A stretch of DNA of 32,000 nucleotides from Longivirga aurantiaca (GTDB taxonomy: Bacteria; Actinomycetota; Actinomycetes; S36-B12; CAIYMF01): assembly GCF_042660085.1 (NCBI RefSeq), contig NZ_JBHSTI010000008.1, positions 1,020,001 through 1,052,000 on the forward strand, read 5' to 3'. Both the position numbers and the translations under genes were made by a program. This document shows, in pieces, positions 5,618 to 31,854 of this stretch (position 1 is the stretch's first letter; the number at the start of each line of letters is the position of its first letter). A model generated the notes under the pieces. The model ran no database searches. It saw nothing but the letters and a program-made list of their open reading frames with translations, and was not told the DNA's origin.

Positions 5618-6571
5618 GTGCGAGCCGCCTCGCGGCCCCGGAACACCCGGACCCTCGCCCGGGCGGCTGTCGCGCTCGCCCTGGTGAGCCTCGTCGCTGC
5701 GTGCACGACGTCGCCGGCGCCCGAGCCCAGCGTCCCCACGTCGACCACCTCCCCGCCGACGAGCCCAGCACCGACCACCTCCGCGCCGACGAGCCCAGCA
5801 CCGACCACCTCGGCGCCCACGACGCCGACGCCGACGACCACCACGCCGACCACGCCGGCCCCGACCAGCAGCAAGCCGTCGACGCCTGCACCGACCACGC
5901 CGTCACCCACGGCGACTGCCGTGCCTGCCTGGCTCGTGGGCGAGGACGTGCGCCGCGTGCCCACCTCCCGCAAGGTCGTGGTCCTCACCTTCGACGGCGG
6001 CGGCAACGCGGCCGGTCTCGCGAGCATCCTCGCCACGCTGGAGGCCGAGAAGGTGCCCGGCACGTTCTTCCTCACCGGGCGCTGGGTGCAGGTGTATCCC
6101 CGTGAGGCGCAGGCGATCGCCGACGCCGGCCATGTGATCGGCAACCACACGATGACCCATCTGCACAGCACGGCGGTCCCCGATTCCGTTCTGCTGAAAG
6201 AGATCCGGGACGCCGCCCTCACGATCCGCGCGGCGACCGGCGTCGACCCACGTCCATGGTTCCGCTTCCCGTACGGCGAACGCACGGAAGCCGACGTCCG
6301 GCTCGTCAACGCGCACGGCTACGTCTGCGTGAGCTGGGGCCTCGACACACTCGGCTGGCTCGGCAGCTCGCGCGGCACGGCCGCGGACGTCACCAGGCGG
6401 GTCGTCGCCGCGCTCCAGCCCGGGCTCATCGTGCTCATGCACGTCGGGGCCAACCCGGACGACGGCACCACGTACGACGCCGACTCGCTCGCGGCCACGA
6501 TCGCGGCGCTGCGGGCGCGCGGCTACACGTTCGCGACGGTGACCGCCCTGCTCGACCGGCCGCAGCGCTGA
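5618..6571 (+). CDS. Polysaccharide deacetylase (NodB domain) lipoprotein with PT-rich linker
   Basis: GTG start lies 7 nt after AGGAGG. The signal peptide has a lipobox (LVSLVAAC). The PT linker includes a 30-bp tandem duplication at 5755-5814. NodB motifs: LTFDGGG and GNHTMTH. Confidence 0.88.
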   Translation: MRAASRPRNTRTLARAAVALALVSLVAACTTSPAPEPSVPTSTTSPPTSPAPTTSAPTSPAPTTSAPTTPTPTTTTPTTPAPTSSKPSTPAPTTPSPTATAVPAWLVGEDVRRVPTSRKVVVLTFDGGGNAAGLASILATLEAEKVPGTFFLTGRWVQVYPREAQAIADAGHVIGNHTMTHLHSTAVPDSVLLKEIRDAALTIRAATGVDPRPWFRFPYGERTEADVRLVNAHGYVCVSWGLDTLGWLGSSRGTAADVTRRVVAALQPGLIVLMHVGANPDDGTTYDADSLAATIAALRARGYTFATVTALLDRPQR

Positions 6572-12564: not shown

Positions 12565-12996
12565 TCAGGTGGCGGCGGGCGGGTCGGACTTCAGGGCGTC
12601 GACGGCCTTCTCGGCCACGCCCTCGACCGCACCCGTGACGGAGTCGAGCTTGCCGCCGGTCTTGTCGCTGACGAACGCCGTCGCCGACGACACCGCGCCG
12701 GTGACCTTGTCGCCGTGCTGGTCGGCGAGGCCGGTGACGGCCTCCTTGGCCTGGCCGGCGAGCTCGCCCGCCTTGACCGCTGCGGTGCCGGCGGCGGCCT
12801 TGGCCTGCTCGGCGGCGGGGCCTGCCGCGGCCTTGGCCTGCTCGGCGACGCCCGAGGCCTTCTCCGCGATGGGGGCCGCGGCAGCTGTGGCCTTCTCGGC
12901 GAGCGGCGCGGCAGCCGCAGCCGCCGTGCTCGCGACGCCGGCGGCCTGGTCCTTGGCCTGGCCGAAGAGTCCCTTGAGGGTGTCCAGAAGTCCCAT
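12565..12996 (-). CDS. MT0933-like 'antitoxin' family small protein with Ala-rich repeats
   Basis: ATG 12996 is preceded by GGAGGA. The C-terminal DKVTGAVSSATAFVSDKTGGKLDSVTGAVEGVAEKA matches the kvd.avdka.d.v..kTGGK pattern of that family. There is an internal 33-bp duplication (AEQAKAAAGxA x2; 12796-12813 / 12829-12846). Confidence 0.65.
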   Translation of the reverse strand: MGLLDTLKGLFGQAKDQAAGVASTAAAAAAPLAEKATAAAAPIAEKASGVAEQAKAAAGPAAEQAKAAAGTAAVKAGELAGQAKEAVTGLADQHGDKVTGAVSSATAFVSDKTGGKLDSVTGAVEGVAEKAVDALKSDPPAAT

Positions 12997-14202: not shown

Positions 14203-14979
14203 TCAGCCGCGGGGGCGGTGCACGTAGTACTCGGTGCCGAAGACCCTCGCGTAGACCGGTCGCGGCAGCTTGAGGAACACCGACAGCGTGCGCGGGCCGT
14301 CGTCGGCGGTGGCCTGCGACGCGTGCGCGGCCATCGACGCGCGCTTGACGTCGAGGAACCGGCGTACGTCGACGCGGTGCGTGATGTCGGCCGACGCCGT
14401 GAACGCGCGGTCGAACGACGTCGGGTCGAACTCGGGAGGGAACGGGTAGACCTTCGCCGCGGCCTTCACCGCGCGAGCCATGAGGTCGCGGGGCGCCGTC
14501 GCCTCGAAGAGCGACGCCGTGCCCGCGAGATCGGCCGCGAGCGCCCCGGCATCGTGCACGCGGATGTGGTCGGGGTGGCCGTAGCCGCCGTTGGCGTCGT
14601 ACGTGACCAGCACGTCGGCGCCCTCCTCGCGCAGCACCTCCGCAACAGCGGACGCCGCCTCCTCCAGCGGCGCCGCGCACCACGGCACCGCGCCCCCCGG
14701 CTGCTGCACCGCGTCGCCGTGCAGCCCGGAGTCGGCGTACGGCAGGCGCACCACCCGGTGCACGCCGAGCGCGGCGGCGGACCGGTCGAGCTCCGCCGAG
14801 CGCCGCGCGGCGAGACCGCCTGCCGCCATGTCGGACGACGCGAGCCCCTCCGCGCCATCGGTCGCGACGACCAGCACCACGCGCTGCCCCTCGGCCACGG
14901 CGCGCGCCATCGTCCCTGCGGTCAGCAGCGCCTCGTCATCGGGGTGCGCGTGCAGGAACACCAGCGTCTTCGCCCTCAC
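14203..14979 (-). CDS. PIG-L (LmbE-like) family deacetylase
   Basis: GTG 14979 lies 8 nt after GGGAGGA. AHPDDEAL and GYGHPDHIRVH are the metal-binding motifs of the family. Confidence 0.85.
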   Translation of the reverse strand: MRAKTLVFLHAHPDDEALLTAGTMARAVAEGQRVVLVVATDGAEGLASSDMAAGGLAARRSAELDRSAAALGVHRVVRLPYADSGLHGDAVQQPGGAVPWCAAPLEEAASAVAEVLREEGADVLVTYDANGGYGHPDHIRVHDAGALAADLAGTASLFEATAPRDLMARAVKAAAKVYPFPPEFDPTSFDRAFTASADITHRVDVRRFLDVKRASMAAHASQATADDGPRTLSVFLKLPRPVYARVFGTEYYVHRPRG

Positions 14980-15088
14980 GCGCCCGATCCTCCCAGATCC
15001 GCCGTACCCCGTTCGCGCCCGCCGTACGCCGCTCGCGCACCAGCACGCCGTCCGTCGACCGGCGCACGGCGCGGGTAGGGTCGCGCAC

Positions 15089-16240
15089 GTGCGGATCGTC
15101 CACATCTCCGACTGCTACCCGCCTCGGCTCGGTGGCATCGAGACCCAGGTGCGGGCGCTCGCCGTGCGCCAGGCGGCCGCCGGCCACGACGTCCACGTCA
15201 TCACCGCGACGCCCGGCGAGACGATCCGCAACGGCACCGAGATCCTCGACGGTGTCACGGTGCACCGCACCACGTTCAAGCTCCCCGCCGACCTCCCCGT
15301 GCACCCGCGCGTCACGAGCGTCATCGGCGACCTCCTGAAGCCCGGGGGAGCGGCGGCGGACGCCGATGCGGTGCACGTGCACGGCGGCGTCGTCTCGCCG
15401 TTCGCCTATCCGGGCATGCGCGTGGCCCGCAAGCTCGGGCTGCCCACGGTGCTCACGATCCACGGCGTCTGGGGCGGCGTGTTCCAGCCGACCGCGAGGC
15501 TCACCGAGGGCCTGCTCAAGTGGGCGCAGTGGGGCGTCGTCCTCAGCGCTGTGTCCGACGCCGCCGCCGACCCGATGCGCAGCGTCGTCGGCGCCGGTGT
15601 GCCTGTGAGCCTCATGCCCAACGGCATCGACGTCGACCACTGGCGCGTCCAGCCCGTCGCGGGCGACCCGAACGAGACGCGCCTCATCGCCGTCATGCGC
15701 CTCGCCCCGCGCAAGCGCGCGATGGCGCTCGTGCAGATGGCGCACGGCGCGAGCCGCATGCTGCCGAGCGGCAGGCGTCTGCGCCTCACGATCGTCGGCA
15801 GCGGCCCCATCACCGCGCAGGTGCAGAGGTACGTCGCCAAGCACGGGCTCACCGCCGGCCGGTTCGTCGTCGACCTGCCCGGACGCCTCGCGCCCGACCA
15901 GGTGAAGGCCGCGCTCGCGGCGTCCGACGCGTTCGTCGCACCGGCCAAGCTCGAGTCGTTCGGGATCGCGGCCCTCGAGGCGCGTACGGCGGGGCTTCCC
16001 GTCCTGGCGTACGCCTCCACCGGCATCCGCACGTTCGTGCACCACGAGGTCGAGGGCCTCCTCGCGCGCGACGACCGGCAGATGGTCGACAACATCTGCC
16101 GCATCGCGTCCGACGTCGCCCTGCGCGAGGCCATCACCGCGCACAACCGCAGCACCGAGCCGGCGCAGTCGTGGCCGCACGTGCTCGAGACCGCCGAGGC
16201 GCTGTACGCCGAGGCCGCGCAGCAGACCGCCCGCCCCTGA
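15089..16240 (+). CDS. Glycosyltransferase family 4 (GT-B, retaining)
   Basis: GTG 15089 gives (M)RIVHISDCYPPRLGGIE, a typical GT4 N-terminus. The C-terminal E-X7-E region is ESFGIAALEARTAGLPVLA. The track ORF from 14591 is a run-on. Confidence 0.85.
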   Translation: MRIVHISDCYPPRLGGIETQVRALAVRQAAAGHDVHVITATPGETIRNGTEILDGVTVHRTTFKLPADLPVHPRVTSVIGDLLKPGGAAADADAVHVHGGVVSPFAYPGMRVARKLGLPTVLTIHGVWGGVFQPTARLTEGLLKWAQWGVVLSAVSDAAADPMRSVVGAGVPVSLMPNGIDVDHWRVQPVAGDPNETRLIAVMRLAPRKRAMALVQMAHGASRMLPSGRRLRLTIVGSGPITAQVQRYVAKHGLTAGRFVVDLPGRLAPDQVKAALAASDAFVAPAKLESFGIAALEARTAGLPVLAYASTGIRTFVHHEVEGLLARDDRQMVDNICRIASDVALREAITAHNRSTEPAQSWPHVLETAEALYAEAAQQTARP

Positions 16241-16261
16241 CCGCGCCGTCCAGGTAGGTGC

Positions 16262-16423
16262 GCGGCGATTCCGTCGCAGAGCGCACGCTCGTTACCCGGG
16301 TAAGGAGGCACCCGCCTAGCTGAGCGGCGATTCCGTCGCAGAGCGCACGCTCGTTACCCAGGTAAGGAGGCACCCGCCTAGCTGAGCGGCGATTCCGTCG
16401 CAGAGCGCACGCTCGTTACCCAG
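16262..16423 (+). repeat. Array A: 62-bp tandem repeat, 2 full + 1 partial copy
   Basis: Unit: gcggcgattccgtcgcagagcgcacgctcgttaccc(g/a)ggtaaggaggcacccgcctagctga. Copies at 16262-16323 and 16324-16385 are 61/62 identical; a 38-bp partial copy lies at 16386-16423. Confidence 0.9.
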
Positions 16424-16462
16424 CTTCGCGGTCCGACCCCTGACCGGGCCGTCCAGGTCTCC

Positions 16463-16522
16463 GAGTTACTGCCCACATGGTCGCTGAAGACGACCTCTCC
16501 GCGACCATTCGGGCAGTAACTC
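16463..16522 (+). other. 60-nt composite hairpin just upstream of dapF
   Basis: GAGTTACTGCCC (16463-16474) pairs with GGGCAGTAACTC (16511-16522). An inner stem pairs ATGGTCGC (16477-16484) with GCGACCAT (16501-16508). The loop is 16 nt. The ATG of track ORF 16477 sits in the inner stem. Confidence 0.6.
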
Positions 16523-16575
16523 GCGGAACACCAGCGGGAGCGGACGGCGGGCGCGGCTCGACTACCATCGGCGGC

Positions 16576-17460
16576 GTGACCAGCCATGCCGCCGCGCTCG
16601 GCGAGCTCGAGGGCCTGGCTGTGCTCAAGGGGCACGGCACGGGCAACGACTTCGTGCTCGTGCCCGACGCCGACGGCGCCCACCCCCTCACGCCCGCGCA
16701 GGTGCGCGCGCTCGCCGACCGCCGCTTCGGCCTCGGAGCCGACGGCGTCCTGCGCGTCGCGCGCACGAAGGACAGCCCCGAGGTCGCCGACCAGGCCGCC
16801 GACGCAGAGTGGTTCATGGACTACCGCAACGGCGACGGCACCACCGCCGAGATGTGCGGCAACGGCGCGCGGGTGTTCGCCCGCTACCTCGTCGACTCCG
16901 GTCTCGAGAGCGGTACGTCGTTCAGCATCGCGACCAGAGGCGGCGCGCGAGCAGTCCGCATCGAGGGCGACGGCGACGTCACGATCGACATGGGCGTGGC
17001 GACCGGACCGCTGCTCCGCGCGATGCCGGTGGTCAGCGTCGGCCCGGAGTCGTGGAACGCCACCGCGGTCAACGTGCCCAACCCGCACGCCGTGGTCTTC
17101 CTCGAGGAGCCGGACGACCTCGACGCCCTCGACCTCACCCAGCCGCCGCAGGCCGGGCCGCCCGCGATGTTCCCCGACGGCGTCAACGTCGAGTTCGTCG
17201 TGCGCGTCGGCGCGCCGGACGAGCGGCACGTGCGGATGCGCGTGCACGAGCGCGGCGTCGGTGAGACTCTCAGCTGCGGCACCGGGGCGTGCGCCGTGAT
17301 GGTCGCGGCCGCAGGCCGTGACCAGGCTCCGGCTGAGGTCGCCTACACCGTCGACGTGCCCGGAGGAACAGTGGTCGTGACCCGTCGAGCCGACGAGCAC
17401 ATCGAGCTGCGCGGCCCTGCCGAGATCGTGGCCATCGCGACCATCACGTCCGCGCCGTGA
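16576..17460 (+). CDS. dapF: Diaminopimelate epimerase
   Basis: KGHGTGNDFVLVPD plus both catalytic Cys motifs (EMCGNGARVF and LSCGTGACAV). GTG 16576 gives the usual ~294-aa size and lies 7 nt after a TACCAT -10-like hexamer, so the mRNA may be leaderless. ATG 16477 (327 aa) is the alternative start. Confidence 0.9.
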   Translation: MTSHAAALGELEGLAVLKGHGTGNDFVLVPDADGAHPLTPAQVRALADRRFGLGADGVLRVARTKDSPEVADQAADAEWFMDYRNGDGTTAEMCGNGARVFARYLVDSGLESGTSFSIATRGGARAVRIEGDGDVTIDMGVATGPLLRAMPVVSVGPESWNATAVNVPNPHAVVFLEEPDDLDALDLTQPPQAGPPAMFPDGVNVEFVVRVGAPDERHVRMRVHERGVGETLSCGTGACAVMVAAAGRDQAPAEVAYTVDVPGGTVVVTRRADEHIELRGPAEIVAIATITSAP

Positions 17461-27575: not shown

Positions 27576-27596
27576 GCGTCCACCGACCTCTCGCCC

Positions 27597-27785
27597 GCAG
27601 CCGGGTAACCAGGGTGCTCTCTACGACGGATTCGCCACTCAGCCACCGCGCGGGCCCCGAAGCTGGGTAACCAGGGTGCGCTCTACGACGGATTCTCCAC
27701 TCAGCTATCGCGCGGGCCCCGCAGCCGGGTAGCCAGGGTGCGTTCTACGACGGATTCGCCACTCAGCCAGCACACCCGCGCGCCG
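27597..27785 (-). repeat. Array B: 62-bp tandem repeat, about 3 copies, same family as array A but inverted
   Basis: The (c/t)cgggta(a/g)cc landmarks recur at 27601, 27663 and 27725, a period of 62. The B2 unit is 37/43 identical to the reverse complement of the array A unit over gggtaac...ctcagcta. Confidence 0.85.
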
Positions 27786-31086: not shown

Positions 31087-31854
31087 CTACATGCTGGCCA
31101 GGATGGCCCGCTCGGCCACGTCGGGGCCGCCGGACATCCAGTAGGCGATGCCGGCCCGCTCGGCCACGTCGGGACCGCCGGACAGCACCGGGACGAGCCC
31201 TGCGCGCTCGGCCACGTCGGGGCCACCGGACTTCCAGTAGCCCGGCACCGAGGTCTTCGCGAGGATCGCGCGCTCGGCCACGTCGGGGCCGCCGGACAGC
31301 ACCGGGACGAGCCCTGCGCGCTCGGCCACGTCGGGGCCGCCGGACATCCAGTAGCCCGGCACCGAGGTCTTCGCGAGGATCGCGCGCTCGGCCACGTCGG
31401 GACCGCCGGACATGCCGTCATCGAGGGCGGCCGCCAGGGCCATGCGCTCGAGACCGGCGCGCTCCGCGACGTCGACACCGCCGGGGAGCAGGTACTCGAT
31501 GCCCGCGCGCTCGGCCACGTCGGGTCCGCCCGACATGTCCGTGACGACGGGGATGAGCGTGACAGGCGCCGGCGCCGGAGGCGCGGGCGGCTGGGTCTGG
31601 GTCGTCGACATCAGCTGGATCACGATCGCCGCGACCACCATGCCGACGAGGACGACGATGATGAGCCCGACCAGGATCGGGGAGGGACGCGCCGCCGGGG
31701 CGGGCGTCGGAGTCGTGCCGACGGGCGGAATCGTCGGGGACACCTCCACCTTGGGGGTGTCCGTGAGCGCGTGCAGCGACGAGATGTCGTCCGGGACGAC
31801 GGGCTGCTCGTGCAGGGTGTCGAACTCATGCGGGTTCTGCGTGGGAGTACTCAT
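31087..31854 (-). CDS. Single-pass membrane protein with eight SGGPDVAERA repeats
   Basis: ATG 31854 lies 6 nt after GGGAGG. The N-terminal ~57 aa are followed by the TM helix ILVGLIIVVLVGMVVAAIVIQL and a Pro-rich linker. Then come 8 copies of (M/K)SGGPDVAERA(G/I)(L/I), separated by short hydrophobic/aromatic segments, to the C-terminus. Confidence 0.8.
   Translation of the reverse strand: MSTPTQNPHEFDTLHEQPVVPDDISSLHALTDTPKVEVSPTIPPVGTTPTPAPAARPSPILVGLIIVVLVGMVVAAIVIQLMSTTQTQPPAPPAPAPVTLIPVVTDMSGGPDVAERAGIEYLLPGGVDVAERAGLERMALAAALDDGMSGGPDVAERAILAKTSVPGYWMSGGPDVAERAGLVPVLSGGPDVAERAILAKTSVPGYWKSGGPDVAERAGLVPVLSGGPDVAERAGIAYWMSGGPDVAERAILASM

Follow-up and report, generated by a model that had tools for sequence, protein, structure and literature searches.

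Array A, the tandem repeat block between a GT4-family glycosyltransferase gene and dapF in Longivirga aurantiaca, is a lineage-specific, REP/MIRU-like 62-bp repeat of the DNA level, and it is probably a gene-less ('solo') array of a non-coding family that would be selfish or near-neutral, with a candidate nuclease possibly aiding its spread. It belongs to a dispersed family, has expanded locally, has been copied to a second site behind uppS and lacks a conserved fold and, judged against the orthologous sites of relatives, it is a real insertion. The window analyzed is the 32,000-nt stretch C8:1020001-1052000 of the L. aurantiaca genome (G000; 3.67 Mb, 71 contigs), and positions given without a contig are those of the window.

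Array A between the glycosyltransferase gene and dapF

The gene upstream of Array A encodes a GT4-family glycosyltransferase (longest ORF 14591-16240, plus strand; Pfam Glyco_transf_4, 5e-22, and Glycos_transf_1, 1e-19) that ends on a TGA at 16238-16240; its real start possibly lies further downstream. The initial annotation had described two units, at 16262-16323 and 16324-16385, as nearly identical, and both the sequence and TRF bear this out, the single difference (G/A) lying inside a palindrome, TTACCCGGGTAA (TTACCCAGGTAA in copy 2), which in both full units is followed by AAGGAGG, as had also been reported. A third copy, previously taken to be a partial one, is indeed present, but according to the family model it possesses a full core and a different linker. 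As delimited with nhmmer, the array consists of unit 1 at 16254-16315 (core 16254-16302, with AAGGAGG in the linker; E = 4.9e-16), unit 2 at 16316-16377 (E = 3.3e-17), whose internal linker equals that of unit 1 (identity 1.0), and unit 3 at 16378-16436 (E = 5.1e-15), in which a full core (16378-16426) is followed by the terminal linker AGCTTCGCGGTCCGA, all on the plus strand. This terminal linker is unlike the internal linkers of Array A and, in a comparison with C8:2142984-2143194, is common to a sister array behind uppS. TRF places the tandem repeat at 16255-16423, with a period of 62, 2.7 copies, 97% matches and a score of 317. The whole block is bracketed by a 22-mer, CCCCTGACCG[C/G]GCCGTCCAGGT, whose copies at 16234-16255 (CCCCTGACCGCGCCGTCCAGGT) and 16437-16458 (CCCCTGACCGGGCCGTCCAGGT), both on the plus strand, agree at 21 of 22 positions; the first copy contains the GT4 TGA, in line with the original description, and is the native GT4 3' end (last codon, stop codon and 15 nt), and the second is a duplicate of this GT4 3' flank. 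A 23-nt core, of which the window has six occurrences, appeared in none of 100 shuffles, and the direct repeat in the flanks has a score of 19 where the null reaches 11 at most, so that the repeat is not a product of chance. An assembly artifact, or a purely local slippage product unrelated to other loci, would be in keeping with three arrays of the family lying at contig ends, where repeats trouble the assembler, but Array A lies inside a 2.36-Mb contig, has unique flanks and distinguishable units, and belongs to a family seen in three independent assemblies, so that we give this explanation almost no credence.

Directly behind the second 22-mer lies a REP-like palindromic element at 16461-16524, composed of CGAGTTACTGCCCA, an inner hairpin of ~34 nt and TGGGCAGTAACTCG, which represents a second repeat family with 37 copies in the genome and a strong fold, occurs at the same place in the congeners G007 and G021, and is probably the 3'-end hairpin of GT4. 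The next ORF downstream of Array A is dapF, with a DAP_epimerase domain. In Actinobacteria, leaderless promoters have a -10-like box shortly before the start codon, and most congeners have kept a block of this kind (TAnnnT, 7-8 nt and GTG or ATG) ahead of dapF; here the predicted leaderless promoter and start span 16563-16578 on the plus strand, with TACCAT (-10-like TANNNT) at 16563-16568, 7 nt and a GTG at 16576. A simple scan for sigma-70 promoters and terminators returned neither at the locus. Because dapF has this conserved block of its own, it would not be served by the AAGGAGG ~200 nt upstream and appears to be expressed independently of it from a leaderless-type promoter, which is a warning that AAGGAGG-bearing spacers do not necessarily carry ribosome-binding sites.

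With regard to RNA, the first reading of the block had found no tRNA or RNA motif to account for it, and the searches agree: Rfam gave no match for the Array A region at gathering scores, a permissive Rfam scan gave only weak chance matches of generic miRNA-precursor hairpin models on the neighboring hairpin, and ARAGORN gave no tRNA or tmRNA in the region. A tRNA-derived unit, with GTAGCTGAGTGG..TAGAGCGCA as a D-arm-like and CGAATCC as a T-loop-like part, was rejected, the best local scores against the 52 tRNAs of the genome (21-23) being those of the null (19-20 +/- 2.2 for shuffled sequence). RNA hairpins at unit positions 12-15/21-24, 26-29/34-37 and 7-11/33-37 were rejected as well; they show no covariation, and RNAalifold found 0 conserved base pairs across 40 units. 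The region does fold better than its shuffles (z = -5.0), the source of this being the hairpin at 16461-16524 and the pairing of identical units with one another. Peptide coding by the unit was also discarded, as its variable positions have no three-base periodicity.

This absence of periodicity bears on a MIRU-type translational coupler, in which each unit would hold a small ORF with an NTGA start/stop overlap and ribosomes would be passed from GT4 to dapF. The period of 62 equals 3n-1, reading from unit position 5 gives a frame that stays open in 39 of 40 units and closes on the TGA of the following unit (positions 6-8), and in unit 1 of Array A a GTG occupies that position, all as a coupler would have it; yet a canonical start overlaps the TGA in only 8 of the 40 units, units 2 and 3 of Array A read CTGA, and an open frame of 19 codons is expected by chance at 72% GC. 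Moreover, dapF has a start of its own, the conserved TAnnnT, 7 nt and GTG, ~100 nt past the array and behind a long hairpin, and some arrays are inverted relative to their neighbors, which together make coupling very improbable. We conclude that the array has no evident role as an RNA gene or as a ribosome-binding site, nor as a device that couples translation.

The 62-bp repeat family and the copying of Array A behind uppS

The initial annotation had proposed counting further copies in the genome, and these are numerous: a whole-genome nhmmer search recovered 45 units at E<1e-3 in 22 loci, and a sequence-only covariance model 51, with several arrays at contig ends (C26, C42 and C51) and copy numbers therefore possibly under-assembled. 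Each locus holds 1-4 units in head-to-tail order with a strictly kept period of 61-63 bp, and a unit consists of a 49-nt core, sTAGCTGAGTGGCGAwTCCGTCGyAGAGCGCACsCTsGTTACCCGGGTAAC, and a linker of ~13 nt. Between arrays the core is 80% identical and the linker is at chance level (0.37 versus 0.34), whereas within arrays the internal linkers are identical or close to it; the arrays therefore grew by local duplication of the 62-bp unit, and only the core has been kept across loci. AAGGAGG is found only in Array A and one sister array; at its position the other arrays have GGGTAACG or GGGTAGCG, a decayed right arm of the palindrome. The 12-bp palindrome is perfect in most units and degenerate in many, it reaches 32 bp (CGCACGCTCGTTACCC|GGGTAACGAGCGTGCG) in a few copies only, and most of the 49-nt core is non-palindromic. 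A 49-nt element that inserts with a 13-bp target duplication was rejected as the origin of the linkers, since neither what precedes the first core nor what follows the last one matches the internal linkers.

With gene positions taken from GC3-based ORF calls, most arrays follow an ORF and have unidirectional or convergent genes on their two sides, and in 14-16 of the ~20 arrays the beginning lies at -6 to +29 bp relative to the stop codon of an upstream gene in the same orientation, with three upstream genes stopping on the unit's own TAG or TGA. In a few arrays the orientation is inverted and a stop codon lies 15-17 bp from the 3' end; among them is Array B, a three-unit array on the minus strand of the window (27590-27769 by TRF, which gives 27594-27769, and nhmmer), whose units are the reverse complement of the Array A unit and which lies 15 bp past the stop codon of a DEAD/Helicase_C_2 gene. 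Most units contain TAG (positions 2-4), TGA (6-8) and TAA or TAG (48-50) in three different frames across the unit junction, and because these stops cover all three frames, upstream genes would still terminate. The genes beside the arrays are functionally unrelated (GT4, helicase, uppS, pta and DUF305). More than half of the arrays (12 of 22) are concentrated within C8 1.02-1.17 Mb, that is 152 kb or 4% of the genome (binomial P ~1e-11).

These arrays have a patchy distribution among relatives, of which the closest by GT4 identity are G018 (94%), G021 (92%) and G007 (91%). An empty GT4-dapF site with a single 22-mer had been anticipated, and G007 provides it: in its spacer (...CCCCTGACCCCGCCGTACAGGC|CCCGAGTTACTGCCCA...), one 22-mer-like copy (19/22) is joined straight to the hairpin element. 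The spacer of G021 is likewise free of an array, and that of G018 holds two units and no hairpin, the terminal linker TTCGCGG(C)TCCG being common to G018 and G000. The presence of an array in G018 and the empty sites in G007 and G021 place the origin of Array A in the G000/G018 lineage. None of G018, G021 and G007 has Array B in the spacer behind its helicase orthologue, and over the GT4-dapF, helicase and uppS loci close relatives differ in whether an array is present, although these relatives are few and related to one another and hence not independent. A strict-pattern search found 41 units in G000, 16 in G007 and 9 in G018, and none in 21 other congeners and 16 other genera of the order. 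An exact-core scan of ~185,000 species genomes found the core in only two other genomes, MAGs named 'uncultured Actinomycetes bacterium' and 'Candidatus Nanopelagicales bacterium'; the core was found in just three genomes, all from a single actinobacterial genus that is uncultured or little studied.

Such a distribution has to be set against a selected host cis-element, which would consist either of phased protein-binding sites, with the palindrome as a dimer site, or of 3'-UTR elements that stabilize or terminate mRNAs. A period of 62 bp amounts to about six helical turns, the 61-63-bp period is kept even in sister families, the arrays sit at gene 3' ends and the locus folds better than shuffles; in addition, the core has remained 80% identical despite randomized linkers, which could mean a host function rather than selfish turnover. 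Against this, close relatives differ in the presence of arrays at three loci, the neighboring genes have unrelated functions, arrays occur in either orientation with respect to the gene upstream, many units have a degenerate palindrome, and the folding score comes from the neighboring hairpin and the pairing of identical units, with no covarying stem. We therefore regard a host cis-element as unlikely and favor a selfish or near-neutral repeat that would act at the DNA level and be tolerated at gene 3' ends.

How such a repeat may move is illustrated by the sister array behind uppS (C8:2142956-2143194), 1.1 Mb from Array A. At ≤1 mismatch the 22-mer has three copies in the genome, namely those on both sides of Array A and one 3' of the uppS array, and the two arrays have in common an otherwise unique GGTAAGGAGGCAC linker and the terminal linker AGCT[T/G]CGCGGTCCGA. 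The uppS array is specific to G000: in G007, uppS is followed directly by an element of the hairpin family, and in G018 and G021 another gene is found there. On the other hand, four species have the 22-mer as a native part of the 3' end of GT4, with homologous sequence after the GT4 stop in G007, G021 and G018. Because of this, comparison of the two sites identifies the uppS array as a copy of the 3' part of Array A with 22 bp of GT4 flank attached. The right-hand junction of the copy falls in the dispersed hairpin family (CCAGGTCyCCGAGTA). That the GT4 flank was carried along is direct evidence for spread by copying from a template (gene conversion or template switching) rather than by precise transposition.

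The initial annotation had read the block as an insertion with target-site duplication; the insertion is upheld by the empty sites in relatives, but the duplication is not a family trait, as none of the 17 other testable arrays shows a direct repeat in its flanks that exceeds the null maximum and Array A is the sole case among 18. Target-site duplication was accordingly rejected for the family. Arrays as cargo of a larger mobile element were also ruled out, no flanks of >80 bp being shared between arrays. Both the 17 arrays without a flanking direct repeat and the absence of longer common flanks are consistent with templated copying. Under the reading that we favor, the repeat entered the 3' untranslated spacer of GT4, behind the stop codon and ahead of a REP-like hairpin that was already there, and afterwards grew in place by tandem duplication of the 62-bp unit; Array A then served as the template from which its 3' part and 22 bp of GT4 flank were copied behind uppS. 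More generally, new arrays would arise from existing ones by break-repair or template-switch copying, and the breaks may be made by an AbiEi_4-DUF559 (HTH-nuclease) protein, for which there is a candidate gene.

A candidate partner nuclease

A GTAG-tagged REP/BIME mobilized by a RAYT (Y1) transposase would account for units that start with GTAG or CTAG and contain a palindrome, and for their position downstream of genes, between unidirectional or convergent ORFs, which is where Di Nocera et al. (2013; PMC3733652) place REPs. However, PF01797 (Y1_Tnp) has no match in G000, which is 96.3% complete, as against matches in six control genomes, and a RAYT partner gene was rejected as absent on this ground. 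In addition, the tag (TAG at positions 2-4 in 28 of 40 units) lies ~35 nt upstream of the palindrome rather than directly at its end, and the units are head-to-tail and form no inverted dimers, so that mobilization by a RAYT is hardly credible. An all-against-all BLASTP of array neighbors revealed no recurrent protein family of ≥90 aa.

The candidate that we propose instead is the gene at C8:1168546-1169523, which lies in the same 152-kb stretch as the clustered arrays and whose product matches DUF559 (27.8 bits), with a sub-threshold AbiEi_4 match at its N-terminus. G000 has six matches to DUF559 (PF04480), of which this is the only one that adjoins arrays. It is bracketed by three units on one side and two on the other, in direct orientation, and its stop codon is the TGA of the unit. 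Its orthologue in G007 (87%) is bracketed by 2+4 motif-bearing units, and at the orthologous site of G018 there is no gene and one degenerate solo unit. The ORF C8:1119617-1120723 is bracketed by arrays as well but shows no relation to the DUF559 protein. No relative of this protein was found by sequence in the PDB, and a literature search found no published link between DUF559 and dispersed repeats.

In 23 of 28 congeners the AbiEi_4-DUF559 family has more than one copy, and bracketing extends to its other members. When bracketing is defined as a shared repeat (BLAST E<1e-8 between flanks of 500-600 bp), 15 of 24 homologue loci are bracketed (5/8 + 10/16) versus 4 of 500 random G000 genes, a control count that includes the gene C8:1168546-1169523 itself. 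The most conserved part of the 62-bp unit, a central motif CGTCGyrGrG(AG)CGC that Array A units carry as CGTCGCAGAGCGC, is found at 7 of the 24 homologue loci, in six genomes, and on both sides of the gene at six of the seven; the homologue flanks contain it 25 times versus 0.2 expected. The motif-bearing bracketing repeats are direct and on the strand of the nuclease gene, and the arms that frame the motif differ between paralogues and remain complementary.

The bracketing tandem repeats have periods of 62 bp in G000, G007 and G021 (3+2 units in G021) and of 61 bp in G042 (2+2). The sister family of G021 numbers 25 copies, of which 20 are not next to the gene and mostly have a spacing of 62-63 bp, and that of G042 comprises the four bracketing copies and three dispersed ones. 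The repeat and the nuclease occur together in G000 and G007, and G021 and G042 each have a repeat family of their own with a bracketed paralogue, in what is a small and related sample; these data therefore define three lineage-specific repeat families, each with its own bracketed paralogue. On the other hand, G018 has 12 units yet no close nuclease orthologue, its best match being a 46% paralogue. The enzyme is therefore dispensable for the persistence of the repeats, and there is no strict co-occurrence of repeat and gene.

It is conceivable, and we advance it tentatively, that the HTH-DUF559 nuclease has the 62-bp units as its cognate sites on DNA, in a partnership that would resemble that of REP and RAYT and involve an unrelated enzyme of the PD-(D/E)XK type. 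The motif CGTCGTGGAG(AG)CGC and the paralogue-specific arms would then set specificity, breaks cut by the nuclease and mended with other arrays as template would seed new solo arrays at gene ends, of which the one behind GT4 would be an example, and each species of the genus would have a co-diversified pair of enzyme and repeat with a period of ~62 bp. The bracketing would be explained equally well by a nuclease that spreads its terminal repeats and by a nuclease cassette that homes into pre-existing arrays.

Relation to known repeat systems

Taken alone, Array A is one more lineage-specific intergenic repeat, of use in annotation and as a VNTR-type strain marker. The daughter array behind uppS adds a dated and directional example of array spread, and since this daughter carries host flank, copy-repair is favored over cut-and-paste transposition. 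From a wider point of view, tandem repeats at gene ends that were unexplained are here tied to a candidate partner enzyme, DUF559, with three pairs of paralogue and repeat in one genus, and the origin of REP/MIRU-like repeats outside Proteobacteria becomes testable with one protein and one 62-bp DNA. We propose that the repeats are the terminal repeats of AbiEi_4-DUF559 cassettes, which are not a published family.

Several known systems have features in common with this arrangement. MITEs and solo terminal repeats (Correia, ERIC, solo LTR-like footprints) are, like the 62-bp family, scattered gene-less end sequences of a coding cassette, and G018 keeps a solo unit where the nuclease cassette is absent, as such footprints would. 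Unlike MITEs, the 62-bp family is tandem, lacks terminal inverted repeats and a family-wide target-site duplication, and has no known transposase. MIRUs, compared by description, share with it the host phylum Actinomycetota, units of 40-100 bp that form short tandem arrays in direct orientation, scattered over intergenic spacers, a position beside start or stop codons, a copy number that varies between relatives and a unit length of 2 mod 3. MIRUs insert at start codons and have a coupled internal ORF at -4 spacing (PMC12548453), whereas the 62-bp arrays abut stop codons, show the overlap in 8 of 40 units only and belong to a different host lineage. The REP/BIME/REPIN-RAYT systems of Proteobacteria differ in that REPs form inverted pairs, whereas the 62-bp units are head-to-tail with a fixed period and a hairpin that is largely worn down, and in that the bracketed gene here encodes no Y1 transposase but an unrelated AbiEi_4-DUF559 protein (PD-(D/E)XK-type) with direct, not inverted, flanking repeats. 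The likeness to these systems lies in short non-coding repeats in tens of copies, specific to a species or lineage and mostly placed just downstream of coding regions, in a GTAG-like 5' tag together with a palindrome, and in one enzyme gene flanked by its own repeats.

Array B and other repeats in the window

Array B (window 27590-27769, minus strand), which comprises three units of the dispersed 62-bp family, lies 15 bp 3' of the stop codon of the DEAD/Helicase_C_2 gene and is inverted relative to both neighboring genes; it is missing from the orthologous spacer of all three relatives compared (G018, G021, and G007). Tandem Repeats Finder also reported a 114-bp unit present in 2.2 copies with 97% identity (31157-31412), 15/30-bp units (5735-5907), and 33-87-bp units (12744-12915), all of which are probably repeats within coding sequences. 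Elsewhere in the L. aurantiaca genome, one array of the family is broken by a run of 40 Ns (C8:1149801-1149840) and three others are located at contig ends (C26:997-1139, C42:4877-end, and C51:1-107), indicating that these repeats interrupt or trouble assembly, so that array copy numbers in this genome may be underestimates.

Related units and a possible origin of the 3' module

The congener G021 has no L. aurantiaca-type 62-bp unit but harbors a sister family of tandem 62-63-bp units (GAAGCGGGCGTGGATGCG-CGTCGTGGGGCGCGC-GCAACCGCTGCCGCTTC...) totaling 25 copies at locus L103 (C12:68150-69513) and about 11 other loci; five of these copies (3 + 2) bracket an AbiEi_4-DUF559 nuclease paralogue. In G018, the site orthologous to the L. 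aurantiaca array-DUF559-array cassette (L092, C3:323501-323571) carries only a single degenerate unit, between the stop codon of a DUF305 gene and that of the convergent gene. Either the two direct arrays may have recombined out, leaving this unit as a deletion footprint, or the site may be an unoccupied one. The 3' half of the 62-bp unit also occurs in L. aurantiaca in solo form (C8:1135707-1135802, C8:1149736-1149825, and C2:254607-254668), as a perfect 32-bp palindrome (CGCACGCTCGTTACCC|GGGTAACGAGCGTGCG), suggesting that this 3' module was originally a full hairpin.

The probable dapF start and a second, palindromic repeat family

Upstream of dapF, the gene downstream of Array A, the sequence TACCAT is followed by 7 nt and GTG (16563-16578), and this block (TAnnnT, 7-8 nt, and a start codon) is conserved in most congeners, which suggests that the dapF transcript is leaderless. 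The start of the longest dapF ORF, ATG 16477, is probably not the one used and falls within a hairpin (16461-16524) belonging to a palindromic repeat family distinct from the 62-bp family and found at 37 places across the L. aurantiaca genome (e.g. C2:26872, C8:324091, and C8:2142892). Its members consist of CGAGTTACTGCCCA, an inner hairpin of ~34 nt, and TGGGCAGTAACTCG, in that order. The inner hairpin occurs in two versions, one with aatggtcgctgaag..cttcagcgaccatt and the other with aagtggggtg..caccccactt, and shows compensatory changes. Members of the family usually sit immediately 3' of stop codons, and the family probably represents REP-like or I-shaped terminator hairpins.
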